Numbered from the stretch's first letter, positions 1 through 9,427 are shown. The stretch: DNA of 9,427 bases from a virus (IMGVR_UViG_2563366799_000002), one strand, 5' to 3'. Translations and numbers: made by a program. Notes: generated by a model from the sequence alone, not told the origin.

Positions 1-248
<248 letters not shown>

Positions 249-324
249 TAAGCTCCTGGGGATTCACTCGCTTGTCGCCTTCCTGCAACTCGAATTATTT
301 AGAGTATATCCATTTATTATCTTT

Positions 325-346
325 CTGCGCACTTCACGGTGCGCAG
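325..346. promoter_or_regulatory. Perfect 8-bp inverted repeat CTGCGCAC-N6-GTGCGCAG, 17 bp upstream of the ybhJ start
   Basis: Read directly: ctgcgcac ttcacg gtgcgcag at 325-346, followed by GGAG (352-355) and the ybhJ ATG at 363. It could be an operator or a 5' leader hairpin. No T-run follows, so an intrinsic terminator is unlikely. Confidence 0.3.
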
Positions 347-362
347 ATATCTGGAGCATTTG

Positions 363-2624
363 ATGATCAAGTTATCTGAAAAAGGCGTGTTTCTCGCCAG
401 TAATAACGAAATAATTGCCGAAGAACATTTCACCGGCGAAATTAAAAAAGAAGAAGCCCAAAAAGGCACTATTGCCTGGTCTATTCTCTCTTCTCATAAT
501 ACGTCCGGAAATATGGATAAACTTAAAATTAAGTTTGATTCATTAGCCTCTCACGATATTACCTTTGTTGGTATTGTACAGACCGCTAAAGCGTCCGGTA
601 TGGAACGTTTCCCGCTGCCGTATGTGCTGACCAACTGCCATAACTCACTTTGCGCCGTCGGCGGCACCATTAACGGTGATGACCATGTTTTTGGTTTATC
701 GGCGGCTCAGCGTTATGGCGGTATTTTTGTGCCTCCGCATATTGCGGTCATCCATCAATATATGCGTGAGATGATGGCAGGTGGCGGCAAAATGATCCTC
801 GGGTCAGACAGTCACACCCGTTACGGTGCATTAGGGACAATGGCAGTCGGTGAGGGCGGCGGCGAGTTGGTAAAACAATTGCTTAATGACACTTGGGATA
901 TCGACTATCCGGGAGTTGTTGCGGTGCATCTGACCGGAAAACCAGCGCCGTATGTGGGGCCGCAGGATGTGGCGCTGGCTATCATCGGTGCCGTGTTCAA
1001 AAACGGCTACGTCAAAAACAAAGTGATGGAATTCGTAGGTCCCGGCGTTGCTGCGCTCTCTACCGATTTCCGTAACAGCGTTGACGTTATGACCACTGAA
1101 ACGACCTGTTTAAGTTCTGTCTGGCAAACCGATGAAGAAGTCCATAACTGGCTGGCGCTCCACGGTCGCGGCCAGGATTACTGCCAGCTTAACCCTCAAC
1201 CGATGGCGTACTACGATGGCTGCATCAGCGTTGATTTAAGCGCCATCAAACCAATGATTGCGCTGCCGTTCCACCCGAGCAACGTGTATGAAATCGACAC
1301 GCTGAACCAGAACCTGACCGACATTCTGCGTGAGATTGAAATTGAGTCCGAGCGCGTGGCGCACGGTAAAGCCAAACTCTCGCTGCTGGATAAAGTGGAA
1401 AATGGTCGCCTGAAAGTGCAGCAGGGGATTATCGCGGGCTGTTCTGGCGGTAACTATGAAAACGTTATCGCCGCAGCAAATGCGCTGCGCGGTCAATCCT
1501 GTGGTAACGACACCTTCTCGCTGGCGGTTTACCCGTCATCACAGCCGGTGTTTATGGATCTCGCCAAAAAAGGTGTGGTAGCAGATTTGATTGGCGCAGG
1601 CGCAATCATCAGAACCGCGTTCTGCGGCCCATGCTTTGGCGCGGGCGATACGCCAATCAACAACGGTTTGAGTATTCGCCACACCACGCGTAACTTCCCG
1701 AATCGCGAAGGCTCTAAGCCAGCCAATGGGCAGATGTCAGCGGTGGCGTTGATGGACGCTCGTTCTATCGCTGCGACTGCGGCAAACGGTGGCTATTTAA
1801 CTTCTGCCAGCGAACTCGATTGCTGGGACAACGTGCCGGAGTACGCCTTCGATGTAACGCCGTATAAAAACCGTGTTTATCAGGGCTTTGTTAAAGGGGC
1901 AACTCAGCAACCGCTGATTTACGGACCGAACATTAAAGACTGGCCGGAATTAGGTGCGCTGACTGACAATATCGTCCTCAAAGTGTGCTCGAAGATCCTC
2001 GACGAAGTGACCACCACCGACGAACTGATCCCTTCCGGTGAAACCTCTTCTTATCGTTCAAATCCGATTGGTCTGGCGGAGTTTACCCTGTCACGCCGCG
2101 ATCCAGGTTATGTTGGCAGAAGTAAAGCGACTGCTGAGCTGGAAAATCAGCGTCTGGCGGGGAATGTCAGCGAGCTGACAGAGGTGTTTGCGCGCATTAA
2201 GCAGATTGCTGGTCAGGAGCATATTGATCCGCTGCAAACTGAAATTGGCAGCATGGTCTATGCGGTGAAACCAGGCGATGGTTCTGCGCGTGAACAGGCG
2301 GCGAGCTGCCAGCGTGTGATTGGCGGTCTGGCGAATATTGCCGAGGAGTACGCGACTAAACGCTACCGTTCTAACGTCATCAACTGGGGGATGTTACCGC
2401 TGCAGATGGCGGAAGTGCCAACCTTTGAAGTGGGGGATTACATTTACATCCCTGGCATTAAAGCGGCGCTGGATAATCCGGGTACGACGTTTAAAGGTTA
2501 TGTGATCCATGAAGATGCGCCGGTAACGGAAATTACGCTCTATATGGAAAGTCTGACTGCTGAAGAGCGCGAGATTATCAAGGCGGGTAGTTTGATTAAC
2601 TTCAATAAAAACCGTCAGATGTAA
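363..2624 (+). CDS. ybhJ: Aconitase-family protein YbhJ (putative hydratase/dehydratase)
   Basis: The long ORF 339..2624 matches E. coli YbhJ as I recall it from [31 protein letters not shown] onward, so the start is placed at the ATG at 363 (GGAG 7 nt upstream). Aconitase-type motifs are present (GSDSHT; CGPCFG Fe-S ligand region). Stop TAA at 2622-2624. Confidence 0.93.
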
Positions 2625-2629
2625 AAAGC

Positions 2630-2845
<216 letters not shown>

Positions 2846-2857
2846 AGTTAATAGCTC

Positions 2858-4141
2858 TTACTTCTTCGCCTCTGCAACCACTTTGCTACCCACGCCGCGA
2901 TTATTGTATTCCCACATGCGGTTGTAGTTAGTGTCATTCAGATTGCGCTGTATTTCGTCGCTATCGTCAACGCTGCCGGTATTACCCGCAAATGGACGAT
3001 TGGAAATCACCGCATCGCCCCACGGTTTAACCGTGTTAAAACCTTCGTTGATGGCGCTATCACGGATCACCACCTGACCGTTGGTATTGGCATCAACATC
3101 CAGCGAGCGGCCCAGTTGTGCCACGCCATCACCGGAAGCATTGAAACGGCTGTTTACGGCGAGGAAACCGTAATAGATGTTGGACAGCGTAGCCGGTGCA
3201 AACACATACGCTTCTTGCTGAGTACGTGAGTTCACCACGCGGAATTCGGTGTTATCGAACACCACTGCGCCGCGACCAGAAACGATATCCACATCCCCTT
3301 CAATATAGCTGTTGGTCACCAGCGTACGCGGCTGACGGTTGGTTTCCAGACGGTTCTGCACACCGCTGTTGGTGACAAAGAAGGTGTTCTGACGACCGAG
3401 AATGTTAACGTTGTTAATCTGTACCTGGTCACCATCAGTACGCAGTGCCACCGCCGGATGGTTACCTGCATCTACGCTATCGCCCAGCGTGTTTTCGATG
3501 GTCAGATTTTGCAGTTGCAGGCCATTGTTTTGTGACCAGAAGACCGCAGAGCAGAGAACACCGATACTGTCGCTGCGTTTGCTCTGGCAGCTATCGTACA
3601 TATACCACGCTGGTTTACCTGGCATATATTTGCCGCGCGGGTTGACGTCGTGACGCCAGTCGGTAGGGCTCATGCCACCATCAAGGGAAAGCCCAATCTT
3701 CACATCAATCGGTTTTTCACCTGTACCGTACAGAGTAATTCCACCCGGAGCGGCAGGGACATATACCGTTCCCTGATACTCACCAGGCATCACGGCAATA
3801 TACTGGCGCTTGTTGGTACGCTTGATAATTGCCGCATCTACCGCCGCCTGAATCGTGGTATGCGTTACACCTTGAGTGCCCGCCGGGCCGACAACAAATT
3901 CAGGTTGCGCAGGCAGGGTAATCGGGGAAGGATTCCACGCTGCAGCACCTGGTGTCAGGGATGCAAAATAGTGTTGAGCATCGAAATTCTGCGCTTCTTT
4001 TGCCGACAGAATCGGGCGAGAAGAGGTACCAGGCGCGGTTTGATCAGAAGGACGTTGATCGGGCGGGGTTGAGCTACAGGCGGTCAGCGTCACGCCAAAA
4101 GCCAATGCCAGCGCCAGACGGGAAACTGAAAATGTGTTCAC
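2858..4141 (-). CDS. ybhC: Outer-membrane lipoprotein YbhC (pectinesterase-fold, putative acyl-CoA thioesterase)
   Basis: 427-aa ORF with signal peptide and lipobox (MNTFSVSRLALALAFGVTLTAC SS), matching E. coli YbhC as I recall it. GTG start at 4141, stop TAA at 2858-2860. It is the gene that borders attB-lambda on the gal side. Confidence 0.93.
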   Translation of the reverse strand: MNTFSVSRLALALAFGVTLTACSSTPPDQRPSDQTAPGTSSRPILSAKEAQNFDAQHYFASLTPGAAAWNPSPITLPAQPEFVVGPAGTQGVTHTTIQAAVDAAIIKRTNKRQYIAVMPGEYQGTVYVPAAPGGITLYGTGEKPIDVKIGLSLDGGMSPTDWRHDVNPRGKYMPGKPAWYMYDSCQSKRSDSIGVLCSAVFWSQNNGLQLQNLTIENTLGDSVDAGNHPAVALRTDGDQVQINNVNILGRQNTFFVTNSGVQNRLETNRQPRTLVTNSYIEGDVDIVSGRGAVVFDNTEFRVVNSRTQQEAYVFAPATLSNIYYGFLAVNSRFNASGDGVAQLGRSLDVDANTNGQVVIRDSAINEGFNTVKPWGDAVISNRPFAGNTGSVDDSDEIQRNLNDTNYNRMWEYNNRGVGSKVVAEAKK

Positions 4142-4180
4142 AGGTTGCTCCGGGCTATGAAATAGAAAAATGAATCCGTT

Positions 4181-4280
4181 GAAGCCTGCTTTTTTATACT
4201 AAGTTGGCATTATAAAAAAGCATTGCTTATCAATTTGTTGCAACGAACAGGTCACTATCAGTCAAAATAAAATCATTATT
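4181..4280. other. Phage lambda attL (bacterial B arm - 15-bp core - phage P' arm)
   Basis: Core GCTTTTTTATACTAA at 4188-4202, with bacterial sequence to its left (tgaagcct) and the lambda P' arm to its right (gttggcattataaaaaagcattgcttatcaatttgttgcaacgaacaggtcactatcagtcaaaataaaatcattatttg). IHF H' site TATCAATTTGTTG at about 4227-4239. Int arm-type sites P'1 AGGTCACTAT (4249-4258), P'2 CAGTCAAAAT (4259-4268) and P'3 AAATCATTAT (4270-4279). Confidence 0.9.
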
Positions 4281-5346
4281 TGATTTCAATTTTGTCCCAC
4301 TCCCTGCCTCTGTCATCACGATACTGTGATGCCATGGTGTCCGACTTATGCCCGAGAAGATGTTGAGCAAACTTATCGCTTATCTGCTTCTCATAGAGTC
4401 TTGCAGACAAACTGCGCAACTCGTGAAAGGTAGGCGGATCCCCTTCGAAGGAAAGACCTGATGCTTTTCGTGCGCGCATAAAATACCTTGATACTGTGCC
4501 GGATGAAAGCGGTTCGCGACGAGTAGATGCAATTATGGTTTCTCCGCCAAGAATCTCTTTGCATTTATCAAGTGTTTCCTTCATTGATATTCCGAGAGCA
4601 TCAACATGCAATGCTGTTGGGATGGCAATTTTTACGCCTGTTTTGCTTTGCTCGACATAAAGATATCCATCTACGATATCAGACCACTTCATTTCGCATA
4701 AATCACCAACTCGTTGCCCGGTAACAACAGCCAGTTCCATTGCAAGTCTGAGCCAACATGGTGATGATTCTGCTGCTTGATAAATTTTCAGGTATTCGTC
4801 AGCCGTAAGTCTTGATCTCCTTACCTCTGATTTTGCTGCGCGAGTGGCAGCGACAGGGTTTGTTGTTATATGGCCTTCAGCTATTGCCTCTCGGAATGCA
4901 TCGCTCAGTGTTGATCTGATTAACTTGGCTGACGCCGCCTTGCCCTCGTTTATGTATCCATTGAGCATTGCCGCAATTTCTTTTGTGGTGATGTCTTCAA
5001 GTGGAGCATCAGGCAGACCCCTCCTTATTGCTTTAATTTTGCTCATGTAATTTATGAGTGTCTTCTGTTTGATTCCTCTGCTGGCCAGGATTTTTTCGTA
5101 GCGATCAAGCCATGAATGTAACGTAACGGAATTATCACTGTTGATTCTCGCTGTCAGAGGCTTGTGTTTGTGTCCTGAAAATAACTCAATGTTGGCCTGT
5201 ATAGCTTCAGTGATTGCGATTCGCCTGTCTCTGCCTAATCCAAACTCTTTACCCGTCCTTGGGTCCCTGTAGCAGTAATATCCATTGTTTCTTATATAAA
5301 GGTTAGGGGGTAAATCCCGGCGCTCATGACTTCGCCTTCTTCCCAT
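4276..5346 (-). CDS. int: Lambda-type integrase Int (tyrosine recombinase), apparently intact
   Basis: 356-aa ORF, 1071 nt, MGRRRSHERRDLPPNLYIRNNGYYCYRDPRTGKEF...QYRDDRGREWDKIEIK. Length, position relative to att and sequence match lambda Int as far as I can recall. The catalytic R..K..HxxR..H..Y context is present (HELRSL, GHKSDTMASQY). Confidence 0.95.
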   Translation of the reverse strand: MGRRRSHERRDLPPNLYIRNNGYYCYRDPRTGKEFGLGRDRRIAITEAIQANIELFSGHKHKPLTARINSDNSVTLHSWLDRYEKILASRGIKQKTLINYMSKIKAIRRGLPDAPLEDITTKEIAAMLNGYINEGKAASAKLIRSTLSDAFREAIAEGHITTNPVAATRAAKSEVRRSRLTADEYLKIYQAAESSPCWLRLAMELAVVTGQRVGDLCEMKWSDIVDGYLYVEQSKTGVKIAIPTALHVDALGISMKETLDKCKEILGGETIIASTRREPLSSGTVSRYFMRARKASGLSFEGDPPTFHELRSLSARLYEKQISDKFAQHLLGHKSDTMASQYRDDRGREWDKIEIK

Positions 5347-5542
5347 TTCTGATCCTCTTCAAAAGGCTACCTGTTACTGGTCGATTTAAGTCAACCTTTA
5401 CCGCTGATTCGTGGAACAGATACTCTCTTCCATCCTTAACCGGAGGAGGGAATATCCTGCATTCGCGCACCCATCGACGAACTGTTTCAAGGCTTCTTGG
5501 GCGTCGCTGGCGAGCGTTCCACTCCTGAAGTGTCAAGTACAT
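5324..5542 (-). CDS. xis: Lambda-type excisionase Xis
   Basis: 72-aa ORF MYLTLQEWNARQRRPRSLETVRRWVRECRIFPPPVKDGREYLFHESAVKVDLNRPVTGSLLKRIRNGKKAKS, matching lambda Xis. Its 3' end overlaps the int start by 23 nt as in lambda. Confidence 0.95.
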   Translation of the reverse strand: MYLTLQEWNARQRRPRSLETVRRWVRECRIFPPPVKDGREYLFHESAVKVDLNRPVTGSLLKRIRNGKKAKS

Positions 5543-5568
5543 CGCAAAGTCTCCGCAATTACACGCAA

Positions 5569-5592
5569 GAAAAAACCGCCATCAGGCGGCTT
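5569..5592 (-). terminator. Candidate intrinsic terminator hairpin (minus strand) between orf55 and xis
   Basis: Minus-strand reading AAG CCGCC TGAT GGCGG TTTTTTT: a 5-bp GC stem with 4-nt loop followed by a 7-T run. The stop codon of orf55 (TGA) sits in the loop. The stem is short, so its strength is uncertain. Confidence 0.45.
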
Positions 5593-5749
5593 GGTGTTCT
5601 TTCAGTTCTTCAATTCGAATATTGGTTACGTCTGCATGTGCTATCTGCGCCCACAGCATCCAGTGGTCATAGCAGTCGCTGATGTTCTCGGCTTCGATAA
5701 CTCTGTTGAATGGTTCTCCATTCCATTCACCTGTAACTCGGAAGTGCAT
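5582..5749 (-). CDS. Small lambda ORF (orf55-like hypothetical protein, 55 aa)
   Basis: Not in the ORF track (below its length cutoff). My own translation of the minus strand: MHFRVTGEWNGEPFNRVIEAENISDCYDHWMLWAQIAHADVTNIRIEELKEHQAA*. The 168-nt length and the 39-nt gap to xis match the small hypothetical ORF that follows xis in lambda, as I recall the map. Confidence 0.6.
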   Translation of the reverse strand: MHFRVTGEWNGEPFNRVIEAENISDCYDHWMLWAQIAHADVTNIRIEELKEHQAA

Positions 5750-5752
5750 TTA

Positions 5753-6226
5753 TCATCGCCATAAAACAAAACTCGCCGTAGCGAGTTCAGATAAACCATC
5801 CGGAATTACCGGAGAGTTGCCGGGTTCTTTAATGTGCAAGCGAGGCTCACCATCTTTTGGTTCAGGCCACTGGCGCTCCATGTTGATCTTCAATTTATCT
5901 TCCATAGCAGCGGTAATTTCAGCATCGCTGATGCCAGCACGGCGCTGTGCATCCCACAACAGGAAATGCATATCAGCCCACTCGCTGAGATCGTCTGGTT
6001 CGGCTGCGGCTTCCAGAGCCTCTTTTGAGAGGTGTTTCAGTGGACCAATGGGGCCAACGCAGCCAAATGTGGAGTCAGACCATTTGGCATGCTCGTGGCG
6101 AATCAGTTCGCGTTCCAGTGATGCCAGTGCAATTCGTGCCAGTTCCATTTGTTCGCCACGAGTAAGCCCGTTTTCAAGCGGATTTTTAATGAACAATTCA
6201 ATACGTTCTTTGGTAATAGTGGTCAT
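5753..6226 (-). CDS. Phage protein with MazG/HisE-like nucleotide pyrophosphohydrolase motif (157 aa); not a lambda gene
   Basis: ORF with an AGGA ribosome-binding site 7-8 nt upstream of its ATG and a stop 3 nt before the orf55 start. It contains the E-x2-E...E-x2-D pattern (KEALEAAAE...SEWADMHFLLW) typical of all-alpha NTP pyrophosphohydrolases. It occupies the position where lambda carries ea8.5/ea22 but does not resemble them. The function is a motif-based inference. Confidence 0.6.
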   Translation of the reverse strand: MTTITKERIELFIKNPLENGLTRGEQMELARIALASLERELIRHEHAKWSDSTFGCVGPIGPLKHLSKEALEAAAEPDDLSEWADMHFLLWDAQRRAGISDAEITAAMEDKLKINMERQWPEPKDGEPRLHIKEPGNSPVIPDGLSELATASFVLWR

Positions 6227-6236
6227 TTGTTAGTCC

Positions 6237-6517
6237 TTAAACTGCTAGTTGCAATTGCATTTCAAAGCGGTCGCGTTGTTCACAATACGCAAGAGAACCA
6301 GGGCTATTGTGTGCCTCAATCCGTTCTACCATTAATGCTGCGCGTGTCTCTTTACTTGCAGGTGCATAAGCCCCAGACCAGGCTTTATCAATACCGATGT
6401 TTCGAGCGACGTTCGTACTATCTGCGCTGGCTAAGGGTAATTTTGTGAATATCAGCGGATTTAACATGCGCAATCCATGTAGTTTCGTAACCGGCTGCCA
6501 GAAAAATGCATTCCGTG
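6237..6517 (-). pseudogene. Possible 3' remnant of an unknown gene in the non-lambda substitution
   Basis: Of the three minus-strand frames across the non-lambda segment, only one stays open from the exo junction (about 6517) to a TAA at 6237, just upstream of the next gene's ribosome-binding site ([93 protein letters not shown]). An internal ATG at 6473 would give the 78-aa ORF in the track. No family recognised. Confidence 0.3.
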
Positions 6518-6895
6518 GTTGCCGTCACTGCATAAACCATCGGGAGAGCAGGCGGTGCGCATACTTTCGTCGCGATAGATGATCGGGGATTCAGTAACAT
6601 TAACGCCGGAAGTGAACTCAAAGAGGGTTCTGGCGTCGTTCTCGTACTGTTTTCCCCAGGCCAGCGCCTTAGCGTTAACTTCCGGAGCCACACCGGTGCA
6701 AACCTCAGCAAGCAGGGTGTGGAAGTAGGACATTTTCATGTCAGGCCACTTCTTTCCTGAGCGGGGCTTTGCTATCACGTTGTGAACTTCTGAAGCGGTG
6801 ATGACGCCGAGCCGTAATTTGTGCCATGCATCATCCCCCTGTTCGACAGCTCTCACGTCGATCCCGGTACGCTGCAGGATAATGTCCGGTGTCAT
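6461..6895 (-). pseudogene. exo: Lambda exonuclease (Red alpha / Exo), truncated after codon 126 with an 18-codon foreign tail
   Basis: Residues 1-126 ([22 protein letters not shown]...[15 protein letters not shown]) match lambda Exo. After GACGGCAAC (about 6518) the sequence diverges and reads [18 protein letters not shown] instead of GLELKCPFTSRDF.... The C-terminal 100 residues of the 226-aa protein are absent, including the region I recall as carrying catalytic E129/K131. Confidence 0.85.
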
Positions 6896-7677
6896 GCTGC
6901 CACCTTCTGCTCAGTGGCTTTCTGTTTCAGGAATCCAAGAGCTTTCACTGCTTCGGCCTGTGTCAGTTCTGACGATGCTCGAATGTCGCGGCGAAATATC
7001 TGGGAACAGAGCGGCAATAAGTCGTCATCCCATGTTTTATCCAGGGCGATCAGCAGAGTGTTAATCTCCTGCATGGTTTCATCGTTAACCGGAGTGATAT
7101 CGCGTTCCGGCTGACGTTCTGCAGTGTATGCGGTATTTTCGACAATGCGCTCGGCTTCATCCTTGTCATAGATACCAGCAAATCCGAAGGCGAGACGGGC
7201 ACACTGAATCATGGCTTTATGCCGTAACATCCGTTTGGGATGCGACTGCCACGGCCCCGTGATTTCTCTGCCTTCGCGGGTTTTGAATGGTTCGCGGCGG
7301 CATTCATCCATCCATTCGGTAACGCAGATCGGATGATTGCGGTCCTTGCGGTAAATCCGGCATGTACAGGATTCATTGTCCTGCTCAAAGTCCATGCCAT
7401 CAAACTGCTGGTTTTCATTGATGATGCGGGACCAGCCATCAACGCCCACCACCGGAACGATGCCGTTCTGCTTGTCAGGAAAGGCGTAAATTTCTTTCGT
7501 CCACGGATTAAGGCCGTACTGGTTGGCGACGATCAGCAATGCGATGAACTGCGCATCGCTGGCATCGCCTTTAAATGCCGTCTGGCGAAGAGTGGTGATC
7601 AGTTCCTGTGGGTCGACAGAATCCATGCCGACACGTTCAGCCAGCTTCCCTGCCAGCGTTGCGAGTGCTGTACTCAT
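6892..7677 (-). CDS. bet: Lambda Red beta (Bet) single-strand annealing protein, full length
   Basis: 261-aa [69 protein letters not shown]...KATEQKVAA, matching lambda Bet. Its stop overlaps the exo ATG (ATGA) as in lambda. Confidence 0.95.
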
Positions 7678-7682
7678 CCGTT

Positions 7683-7793
7683 TTATACCTCTGAATCAAT
7701 ATCAACCTGGTGGTGAGCAATGGTTTCAACCATGTACCGGATGTGTTCTGCCATGCGCTCCTGAAACTCAACATCGTCATCAAACGCACGGGT
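7683..7793 (-). pseudogene. gam: Lambda gam, 3' remnant only (last ~35 codons)
   Basis: Minus-strand translation ...[36 protein letters not shown] equals the Gam C-terminus and lies 5 nt from the bet start as in lambda. Upstream of about 7794 the frame reads ...[12 protein letters not shown] and hits a stop, so there is no Gam N-terminus. Confidence 0.8.
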
Positions 7794-7822
7794 ATCTGGC
7801 TGAAAGAGGGGGTTATTAAGGC

Positions 7823-8185
7823 GTGAATACCTACAGCATCACATTACCCTGGCCTCCGAGCAATAATCGCTATTACCGCCATAATCGCGGACGCACGCAC
7901 ATCAGCGCAGAGGGGCAGGCATACCGCGATAACGTCGCCCGAATCATTAAAAACGCAATGCTAGATATCGGCCTGGCTATGCCTGTGAAAATCCGCATTG
8001 AGTGCCACATGCCGGATCGCCGTCGCCGTGACCTGGATAATCTGCAAAAAGCCGCTTTTGACGCACTCACTAAAGCAGGTTTCTGGCTGGATGATGCTCA
8101 GGTCGTTGATTACCGCGTTGTGAAGATGCCTGTTACCAAAGGTGGGAGGCTGGAACTGACCATCACCGAAATGGGGAATGAATGA
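7823..8185 (+). CDS. rusA: Holliday-junction resolvase RusA (lambdoid nin-region type)
   Basis: 120-aa ORF (GTG start) [26 protein letters not shown]...[12 protein letters not shown], matching the DLP12 RusA of E. coli as I recall it. Confidence 0.9.
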
Positions 8186-8322
8186 TGTTTGAGTTTAATA
8201 TGGCAGAACTTCTTCGCCACCGCTGGGGGCGTCTGCGCTTATATCGTTTCCCCGGTTCTGTTTTGACCGATTACCGAATACTGAAGAATTACGCCAAAAC
8301 ACTGACAGGAGCAGGAGTATGA
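8182..8322 (+). CDS. ylcG: Small ORF YlcG-like (46 aa) between rusA and Q
   Basis: My own translation: [46 protein letters not shown]. The start overlaps the rusA stop (ATGA). It corresponds to the small ylcG ORF between rusA and quuD in DLP12. Below the ORF-track cutoff. Confidence 0.55.
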
Positions 8323-8407
8323 AGTCAGAGATAACAATCAACTAATACTGTTTTGTTGATTTTTGCTTGTAATTGGCGTTCTGGTCTGAGTTTTGTGGAG
8401 TAAGTTG

Positions 8408-8785
8408 ATGCGTGATATTCAGATGGTTCTTGAGCGTTGGGGAGCGTGGGCGGCTAATAATCATGAAGATGTGACCTGGTCGTCCATTGCCGCCGGTTTT
8501 AAGGGATTAATTCCTTCAAAAGTAAAATCTCGCCCACAATGTTGTGACGATGACGCGATGATCATTTGCGGGTGCATGGCCCGTCTGAAAAAGAACAACA
8601 GCGATTTGCATGATTTATTGGTGGACTATTATGTCGGCGGCATGACTTTTATGGCGCTTGCACGTAAGCATGGGCGATCTGATTGTTGGGTTGGCAGGAT
8701 GCTTCAGAAAGCTGAGGGCGTAGTGGAGGGTATGCTGATGGTGTTGGTTCTCCGATTGGAGATGGATGCTGATTGTTCGAAATAA
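8408..8785 (+). CDS. Late-gene antiterminator Q (phage 82 / DLP12 QuuD type)
   Basis: [65 protein letters not shown]... with cysteine cluster. The start is placed at the ATG at 8408 (GGAG 8 nt upstream) rather than the TTG used by the ORF track. It follows rusA-ylcG as in DLP12. Confidence 0.85.
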
Positions 8786-8883
8786 TTAAAGGAAAAGTTG
8801 CTGTCTGATTGTCATTAGTCTAACATTTTAAATGTTGGAATCGCAACGTAGTTATTATCATATAACAGCTTGTTTCCTGATTT
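8786..8883 (+). promoter_or_regulatory. Candidate Q-dependent late promoter region (pR'-like) downstream of Q
   Basis: AT-rich 100 bp directly after Q, where lambdoid phages carry pR' and the Q-utilisation site. Possible hexamers: TTGCTG (8798-8803), 17 bp, TAACAT (8821-8826); or TTGGAA (8835-8840) with TATCAT (8856-8861). The assignment is positional and not certain. Confidence 0.35.
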
Positions 8884-8912
8884 AGCCAGCCTCCCCAAAG
8901 GCTGGTTTTTTT
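8884..8912 (+). terminator. Intrinsic terminator (tR'-like) on the plus strand
   Basis: AGCCAGCC tccccaaa GGCTGG followed by TTTTTTT (8906-8912): a GC-rich stem-loop with a U-run in the plus orientation only. Confidence 0.6.
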
Positions 8913-8940
8913 CTAATAAGTATTATTTCGGGTAGGGATT

Positions 8941-9145
8941 TTATTGTTTAACCCATAATAATTCATTGACATTGAATCCCAACTTTTGAGCGGTTCGCAC
9001 ATAGTCTGCTTTTACTTTATCTGGAATAGTTGGGGTCCTTGCCAGAATCCATAGGTATTCTCTGTTCGGACCACTGACAAGAGCATACTTATACTCATCA
9101 TCCAGTTTGATTACATTATAGCCACCATAGAAGGGGCCAAAAAAC
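8941..9145 (-). pseudogene. Bacterial lipocalin (Blc-family) gene, C-terminal ~68 codons only; 5' part removed by the IS1 insertion
   Basis: Minus-strand translation ...LPFFGPFYGGYNVIKLDDEYKYALVSGPNREYLWILARTPTIPDKVKADYVRTAQKLGFNVNELLWVKQ* aligns with the C-terminal third of E. coli Blc (SFFGPFYGGYNVIALDREYRHALVCGPDRDYLWILSRTPTISDEV...FIWVQQ, from memory) but is clearly divergent. The frame runs straight into the IS1 terminal repeat at 9146. The M in the ORF track is a TTG inside IS1. The segment is visibly AT-rich. Confidence 0.75.
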
Positions 9146-9427
9146 GGTAATGACTCCAACTTATTGATAGTGTTTTATGTTCAGATAATGCCCGATGACT
9201 TTGTCATGCAGCTCCACCGATTTTGAGAACGACAGCGACTTCCGTCCCAGCCGTGCCAGGTGCTGCCTCAGATTCAGGTTATGCCGCTCAATTCGCTGCG
9301 TATATCGCTTGCTGATTACGCGAAGCTTTCCCTTCAGGCGGGATTCATACAGCGGCCAGCCATCCGTCATCCATATCACCACGTCAAAGGGTGACAGCAG
9401 GCTCATAAGACGCCCCAGCGTCGCCAT
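9146..9427 (-). mobile_element. IS1 insertion sequence, terminal 282 bp (element continues beyond window end)
   Basis: GGTAATGACTCCAACTTATTGATAGTGT at 9146 onward is the IS1 terminal inverted repeat, followed by the insB 3' coding sequence. Confidence 0.9.
9161..9427 (-). CDS. insB: IS1 transposase InsB (InsAB'), C-terminal 88 codons (partial)
   Basis: Minus-strand [91 protein letters not shown] is the IS1 InsB C-terminus. The gene runs off the window edge. Confidence 0.9.

Follow-up and report, generated by a model that had tools for sequence, protein, structure and literature searches.

Cryptic lambdoid prophages marked by insertion sequence (IS) elements and internal deletions are classic, with DLP12, Rac and Qin as examples (PMC3105296, PMC6379469), and in the Escherichia coli B lineage attB is occupied by the 12.1 kb prophage λB (PMC4395058). 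The viral sequence IMGVR_UViG_2563366799_000002, analysed here over its whole length of 9427 bp (hereafter the window), contains a further element of this kind. As a structural account, we consider it very probable that this element represents the left-hand and central portions of a cryptic lambdoid prophage at attλ, reduced by four deletions at short microhomologies and carrying a lipocalin gene split by IS1. The pattern as such is already known: this is an ordinary cryptic prophage, with no departure from the DLP12, Rac and Qin type. A first-pass annotation of the window had described a decayed prophage keeping a specific subset of genes; a defective element at attλ with a λ-like left arm is indeed present, but it is probably not a fused remnant, and the prophage is larger than was thought.

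Comparisons were made with λ (J02459 / NC_001416), DLP12 of strain K-12, the prophages of E. coli H6 (NZ_CP010170) and ET490 (NZ_CP100947; locus labelled L014), 5,426 complete E. coli genomes, and draft or metagenome contigs labelled L005-L013, among them a contig of GCA_014409745.1 (L005) and one of ENA ERZ27310365 (L006); L004 denotes the source scaffold, KE137211.1. The element shares with DLP12 the order ybcO'-rusA-ylcG-Q and the state of a defective lambdoid prophage broken by IS elements. It is nevertheless not DLP12: that prophage lies at argU with intD and has the order rusA-ylcG-quuD-nmpC, whereas the element in the window lies at attλ, has a λ int gene, and features a lipocalin gene after Q. 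Prophage λB of E. coli B (REL606, BL21) is likewise defective, occupies the same ybhC-side attL and has λ-type int, xis and orf55 homologues, but in REL606 it carries genes for an ASCH protein, a DUF4752 protein, a small terminase subunit, tail-fibre assembly and acyltransferases, and has no bet, rusA or Q.

The left end of the element is defined by a λ attL site. The 15 bp core GCTTTTTTATACTAA is preceded by 200 bp identical to the ybhC-adjacent attB side of K-12 (200/200) and followed by 200 bp identical to the P' arm of λ (200/200); no match was seen for the reciprocal arms (11/40 and 10/40). The attL that had been called textbook λ is thus confirmed in every base compared and places a λ-type prophage at attλ, with ybhC on one side and presumably ybhB on the other. 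From the core onwards, 4188-5795 corresponds to λ 27724-29331 (98.8% by blastn, 0 gaps), with orf55 closing the block, and a second gap-free block, 6518-7794, corresponds to λ 31651-32927 (97.8% by blastn) and takes in the truncated exo, bet and the remains of gam, inside which the λ homology stops at λ 32927. Where λ has 2319 bp between the two blocks (29332-31650), the window has 722 bp of mostly non-λ DNA from a foreign b-region. The spacing of int, xis, orf55 and bet, described earlier as exactly that of λ, therefore holds within each block but not from int to bet.

The DNA lost from the element can be read from fuller prophages of the same type, which are found at the ybhC-side attL in strains H6 and ET490. 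Both share with the window the insertion site, the int-xis-red arm and the rusA-ylcG-Q-lipocalin module, and ET490 also the IS1/lipocalin junction. Against ET490 the window resolves into five collinear blocks, each 99.6-100% identical, between which ET490 alone has segments of 805, 1487, 650 and 7136 bp, corresponding to a total loss of approx. 10.1 kb through four deletions (Δ1 to Δ4, Table 1). The junctions carry the signature of illegitimate, microhomology-mediated deletion. According to the ET490 annotation, Δ4 took the 5' part of gam, kil, an S24 repressor gene, a cro-like gene, ydaT, O, P, ren, ybcN and ninE, as well as ybcO except for 10 codons. Unlike the window, H6 and ET490 keep gam, kil, the repressor gene, cro and, in part, cII, and ET490 also retains O, P, ren, ybcN, ninE, ybcO, a full exo and ea genes; H6 has its own cII-to-rusA deletion. 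In the λ-type layout the early promoters pL and pR flank the repressor gene, so that they are assumed, rather than located in ET490, to lie within the Δ4 interval.

The first-pass annotation had read gam as joined directly to rusA-ylcG-Q. The join exists in the sequence, but gam is no longer present as a gene: its final 36 codons and stop are followed by the last 10 codons of ybcO before rusA begins, and the join is a 7.1 kb internal deletion. The same Δ4 junction was also found in the independent contigs L005-L010, so that the rusA-Q block is truly joined to the gam remnant. These contigs come from other isolates and from metagenomes and were assembled independently; L005-L009 each align with the window as a single high-scoring segment pair with 0-2 gaps across all four junctions, and L010, L012 and L013 span the junctions within their reach, L010 reaching Δ4. 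The mosaic of λ and DLP12-like DNA proposed earlier is recovered by blastn as two λ blocks and one DLP12-like block, with the breakpoints now mapped.

The lack of immunity and replication genes noted at first pass was borne out, since neither blastn nor tblastn detected N, rex, cI, cro, cII, O, P, the λ Q gene or S/R/Rz, of either the λ or the ET490 type, in the window. With λ early and late proteins as tblastn queries the window holds only Int, Xis, orf55, Exo residues 1-126, Bet and Gam residues 103-138, and the immunity, replication and lysis proteins of ET490 yielded nothing further in the window, YbcO being represented by its last 10 residues only; every open reading frame (ORF) between bet and rusA is accounted for. 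Genes O and P are likewise absent from the independent assemblies across the bet-rusA junction (L005-L010). The window thus differs from λ in having neither the immunity region nor O/P with the replication origin that an inducible lambdoid prophage would carry, no λ-type nin genes, a cut exo, and a Q gene of another family (PF06530). A satellite or phage-inducible chromosomal island was also considered and dropped, as no primase, replication or packaging-redirection gene was found and a prophage late region follows in the scaffold.

The following history would account for this arrangement. The parent would have been an ordinary mosaic lambdoid phage with a λ-like int-xis-red arm, nin/Q genes of the DLP12 kind, lipocalin-ybgA-AraC morons and an essD/rrrD lysis cassette, which λ Int would have integrated at the canonical attλ next to ybhC; prophages of this type persist almost complete at attλ of ET490 and H6. 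Four illegitimate-recombination deletions would then have removed approx. 0.8 kb of the b-region, approx. 1.5 and 0.65 kb reaching into exo, and approx. 7.1 kb between the interior of gam and the 3' end of ybcO. This fourth deletion would have stripped all host-lethal and regulatory functions (kil, most of gam, the repressor, cro, O, P and ren) together with the presumed early promoters, and an IS1-bounded insertion would then have split the lipocalin gene. In λ, the kil-to-P interval is known to be lethal or destabilising without repression. Its loss may thus have been tolerated or favoured because these genes become lethal or destabilising once repression is lost, and the remaining genes would simply not have decayed yet. 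Read in this way, the locus offers a fully mapped case of the "grounding" of a λ-type prophage, in which the lethal and control genes would be lost by microhomology deletion and the remainder interrupted by IS elements.

Since it has no repressor/cro switch, no N and no O/P, and since exo and gam are broken, the element is predicted to be non-inducible and non-replicating and to form no particles on its own. Still intact are int and xis (site-specific excision), bet (annealing), rusA (junction resolution), ylcG and Q (late antitermination), and these should be annotated as genes, with exo, gam, ybcO and the lipocalin gene as pseudogene fragments. The activator cII and the antiterminator N, on which expression of these genes normally depends, are certainly lacking and the early promoters of the retained genes were probably lost; with N and cII gone and pL and pR presumably deleted, int, xis, bet, rusA, ylcG and Q are, by analogy with λ, probably silent cargo. 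A promoter scan returned 7 sites where 6.5 are expected by chance, none of them upstream of rusA or bet, and at this chance level there is no case for a promoter created at one of the junctions.

Table 1. Features of the window and deletions relative to the prophage of strain ET490.
Feature	Position	Strand	Description and evidence
IS5 end	1-248		99.6% identical to K-12 IS5B
ybhJ	339-2624	+	chromosomal neighbour of attλ
ybhC	2858-4141	-	chromosomal neighbour of attλ
λ attL (B-O-P')	4181-4275		core 4188-4202; B arm to the left, P' arm with Int arm sites to the right
int	4276-5346	-	λ-type tyrosine integrase, 356 aa, intact; 353/356 vs λ Int; Arm-DNA-bind_1 (PF09003), Phage_integrase (PF00589)
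xis	5324-5542	-	excisionase, 72 aa, intact; 71/72 vs λ Xis; PF07825, E 3.9e-41
orf55 homologue (lambdap35)	5582-5749	-	55 aa, intact; 53/55 vs λ
DUF550-type ORF	5753-6226	-	putative dATP/dGTP pyrophosphohydrolase, 157 aa, non-λ b-region; PF04447, E 4.4e-42, profile 1-96/97
78-aa ORF	6237-6473	-	fragment of longer ET490-type hypothetical gene cut by Δ2; no Pfam match
28-bp island	6494-6521		orf61 region, between Δ2 and Δ3; 28/28 vs L014 36342-36369
exo'	6461-6895	-	truncated λ exonuclease, 144-aa ORF; λ exo codons 1-126 of 226 (6518-6895), then foreign tail of 18 codons
bet	6892-7677	-	Redβ single-strand annealing protein, 261 aa, intact; 260/261 vs λ Bet; RecT family PF03837
gam'	7683-7794	-	last 112 bp (36 codons and stop); tblastn with λ Gam: residues 103-138 at 100%
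ybcO'	7795-7826	+	last 10 codons of DUF1364 nin gene, overlapping rusA start; tblastn with ET490 YbcO: residues 87-96 at 100%
rusA	7823-8185	+	Holliday-junction resolvase, 120 aa, intact; 119/120 vs K-12 DLP12 RusA; PF05866, E 6.4e-23
ylcG	8182-8322	+	46 aa; 46/46 vs K-12 YlcG; PF26818 on record for product
Q	8408-8785	+	antiterminator, DLP12/phage-21 family, 125 aa, intact; PF06530, E 2e-50, profile 1-118/118
Terminator-like hairpin	8884-8917	+	intrinsic type, 3' of Q; 9-pair stem followed by TTTTTCT
Lipocalin gene, 3' part	8941-9145	-	Blc-like moron gene cut by IS1; 99.6% vs intact "lipocalin family protein" gene of H6 prophage
IS1, insB/right inverted repeat (IRR) end	9146-9427	-	runs off contig edge; 99.3-99.7% vs annotated IS1A copies of ET490; DDE_Tnp_IS1 domain
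Δ1	5790-5795		805 bp lost; microhomology GATAAA; ea8.5-like gene removed
Δ2	about 6497-6500		approx. 1487 bp lost; microhomology GCTG; b-region removed
Δ3	6518-6521		approx. 650 bp lost; microhomology GTTG; 3' 100 codons of exo removed
Δ4	7792-7794		approx. 7136 bp lost; exact 2-3 bp (TA/GTA) inside imperfect match of about 19 bp

Six ORFs have stayed intact, in contrast to exo, gam and the b-region, and this could also mean that the element is a domesticated or mobile module under selection, in which Int, Xis and attL would serve excision, Bet and RusA would recombine or repair DNA, and Q would hijack or feed superinfecting lambdoid phages. Over window positions 249-9280, contig L006 carries the same remnant with 1 mismatch in 4.96 kb, next to ybhJ and ybhC alleles that differ by 2.6% and 1.3%, respectively. 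This suggests spread or retention across backgrounds; either the remnant resides there in a different chromosomal background, or the flank was swapped by recombination. In addition, temperate phages have been shown to acquire DNA from defective prophages by means of Redβ-type recombinases (PMC3945230), and stress tolerance can benefit from the presence of cryptic prophages (PMC3105296). Nevertheless, we consider such a module improbable: a recently decayed prophage would show intact ORFs anyway, no promoter was found for the retained genes, their λ-type activators are deleted, and Bet without Exo and Gam is a partial Red system only. The carriers are also too alike to reveal purifying selection, and a selection test on the retained ORFs, which are 100% identical at the protein level among carriers, had no power. 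As parts of a cryptic prophage, the retained genes could still supply alleles to superinfecting lambdoid phages (PMC3945230). In DLP12, rusA is known from rus suppressors, and following this example the retained genes could matter if an upstream insertion were to activate them.

A metagenome contig (L011) features a different deletion, which joins gam' to the iteron region of a truncated O gene and whose left endpoint lies 1 nt from that in the window (7780-7800 vs L011 2180-2200); it differs from the window by 17 mismatches in 6518-7794 and by none in 4188-6517. The right-hand partners of both deletions (ybcO' and O') resemble the gam motif CACGGGTAATGGC, which makes a coincidence via microhomology plausible, and the two near-identical endpoints in gam may represent a hot spot or a stepwise, two-step history. 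It is tempting to speculate that CACGGGTAATGGC is a recurrent deletion hot spot and that Int/Xis-Bet-RusA-Q has been kept as a working, spreading recombination and gene-donor module. We hold this combined proposal to be a long shot; if true, the hot spot would imply that the lethal kil-to-P interval is lost convergently and under selection.

The first-pass annotation took the element for a remnant of less than 5 kb bounded by IS1, in which a λ left arm had been fused to a nin-Q module of the DLP12/82 type, which could for example have come from a resident DLP12. The near-identity of RusA and YlcG to their K-12 DLP12 counterparts (Table 1) speaks for such a capture, as does a match from position 7783 to K-12 DLP12 573332-574315 (94.6% over 985 bp); in the relative L005, moreover, a DLP12-like Q is followed by nmpC, lysis genes and bor. 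The DLP12 type of the module is indeed evident in gene order and in proteins, the Q product being identical to QuuD at 105/125 positions. At the DNA level other attλ prophages are much closer than DLP12, with 99.6% identity in H6 (window 7792-9146) and 99.8% in ten complete genomes (7783-9200), indicating that the module was not acquired from DLP12 and that it would belong to the attλ prophage lineage instead. The full gam-to-rusA interval is present at the same locus in ET490. Nor does the combination of a λ arm with this nin-Q module require a special fusion, as both coexist in H6, in ET490 and in the viable phage mEp332 (λ-type left arm, 98.4%; rusA-ylcG-Q module, 94.9%); phages IdasGreatGrand and Lambda_ev087 feature rusA-ylcG-Q-lipocalin at 96-98.7%. 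Together with the evidence at IS1, these findings make capture from DLP12 quite unlikely.

The window coincides end-to-end, at 100% identity, with KE137211.1 (GCA_000408645.1) 16895-7469, and runs of N lie directly on both sides, so that it is one entire contig of a short-read draft scaffold broken in repeats at both ends. A Shigella origin, suspected from the presence of IS1 and IS5, was rejected in view of this match and of near-identity to E. coli isolates. The segment that starts with the attL core and stops at IS1 measures 4958 bp, under 5 kb as annotated, but the prophage extends further: IS1 splits a moron gene, beyond which the late region is found. Across a gap of 2455 N, the next contig begins with an IS1 end followed by the 5' half of the lipocalin gene; ahead of this half lies the target duplication, a direct repeat of 8-9 bp, CAAAAAAC(G), so that the duplication flanks IS1 inside one gene. 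The terminal inverted repeat GGTAATGACTCC, the insB frame and this duplication identify the element as IS1. The contig continues with ybgA-like and AraC-like genes, a DUF1398 gene, and genes for a holin, a lysozyme and Rz. Compared with H6 the stretch is 99.5% collinear, and it shares 100% identity with segments of ET490. The scaffold can be read for approx. 7.4 kb past the window and is still inside the prophage there, which thus runs past IS1 and is larger than 5 kb. Lysis genes are therefore lacking within the window, as stated at first pass, but not from the scaffold. Their contiguity with the segment, along with cI, cro, O and P, had been named as a sign of misassembly; only the lysis half of this was found, cI, cro, O and P being missing from at least eight independent assemblies as well, and lysis genes in the same scaffold point to a larger prophage and not to a misassembly. 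Because short-read assembly breaks at IS1, the prophage looks only 5 kb long, and contig ends in IS copies can in general make a prophage appear far too small.

In ET490, two inverted IS1 copies with their IRR ends outward surround a 1.7 kb ysgD-corA segment at the same site (L014 19249-22490). The IS1-to-IS1 insert measures 3242 bp in ET490 as compared to an estimated 2961 bp or so here, with flanks that are 100% identical, and the scaffold gap probably hides an IS1-corA-IS1 composite transposon inserted in the prophage.

That the gam'-rusA and other junctions are chimeric joins is almost certainly wrong: it is true that the window, as a contig of a short-read draft, stops in a repeat at either end, and that neither the gam'/rusA junction nor the Δ1-Δ3 arrangement occurs in any of the 5,426 complete E. 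coli genomes, yet the independent contigs L005-L010, L012 and L013 are collinear with it, the identical 144-amino-acid truncated Exo product is recorded in 163 blocks of public assemblies, and the junction homologies of 2-6 bp are far below assembler k-mer sizes.

Several points weigh against the interpretation as a deletion-reduced cryptic prophage or parts of it. The parent is reconstructed from relatives, and ET490 is itself rearranged (an IS1 inversion, IS3, and frameshifts). The silence of the retained genes is deduced from λ regulation, and in the prophage part there are practically no differences among the carriers of the deletions. Adjacency of the lysis contig relies on the depositor's scaffolding over the 2455-N gap. 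Finally, the two IS1 ends at the gap are both insB/IRR ends and mutually inverted (L004 4790-5013 and 7469-7750), which implies that the gap holds more than one IS1.

Within the individual modules, tblastn with λ Exo aligned residues 1-126 at 100%, and the YqaJ domain reaches profile position 104 of 150 only. Around the 28 bp island, the slightly wider span 6491-6521 matches λ 30974-31004 at 30/31 positions. The region of the DUF550-type ORF is 99.7% identical to L014 37850-38560, and the 3' end of this ORF crosses Δ1; in the near-identical ET490 copy two indels result in a pseudogene and a 206-amino-acid ORF, as compared to the single 157-amino-acid frame in the window. Full-length PF05866 coverage and near-identity to the characterised K-12 RusA argue for assignment of the resolvase to the RusA family. 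The Q ORF is open from a TTG at 8393, and its product is identical at 124/125 positions to Q of the H6 prophage and at 33/125 in a forced alignment with λ Q; it thus belongs to the PF06530 family, unrelated to λ Q, and shows a weak match to the "Q protein" of PDB 6p18/6jnx (E 1.7e-8). The strong terminator-like hairpin 3' of Q may, by analogy, correspond to tR'.

Two relatives have features of their own. Contig L005 shares the four deletions and matches the window throughout, except for a QuuD-like Q allele that differs by 12% from position 8393 onward, after which the nmpC porin gene, lysis genes and bor follow in DLP12 order; it is either a real recombinant of the attλ remnant with DLP12, or a chimeric assembly via the shared rusA-ylcG repeat. 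In ET490 (L014 1-9000) the major capsid gene is split by an integrative element with an integrase, AlpA, a primase-like protein, ssb, and capsid and decoration genes of its own, which looks like a satellite or a second prophage within the first.

A scan of the whole window against Rfam gave no family at gathering score. On the chromosomal side of attL, the ybhJ-ybhC intergenic region (2648-2842) contains a palindromic repeat resembling repetitive extragenic palindromes or bacterial interspersed mosaic elements, in two tandem copies of approx. 100 bp that are 91% identical, which yields spurious ORFs on both strands. The IS5 copy at the left end of the window is inserted between ybhI and ybhJ. 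A second IS5-like end, 87.6% identical, follows in the scaffold after another 3 kb or so (L004 19866-20049); the product of ybhI as called there has a reduced length of 361 amino acids, as compared to 477 in other strains.

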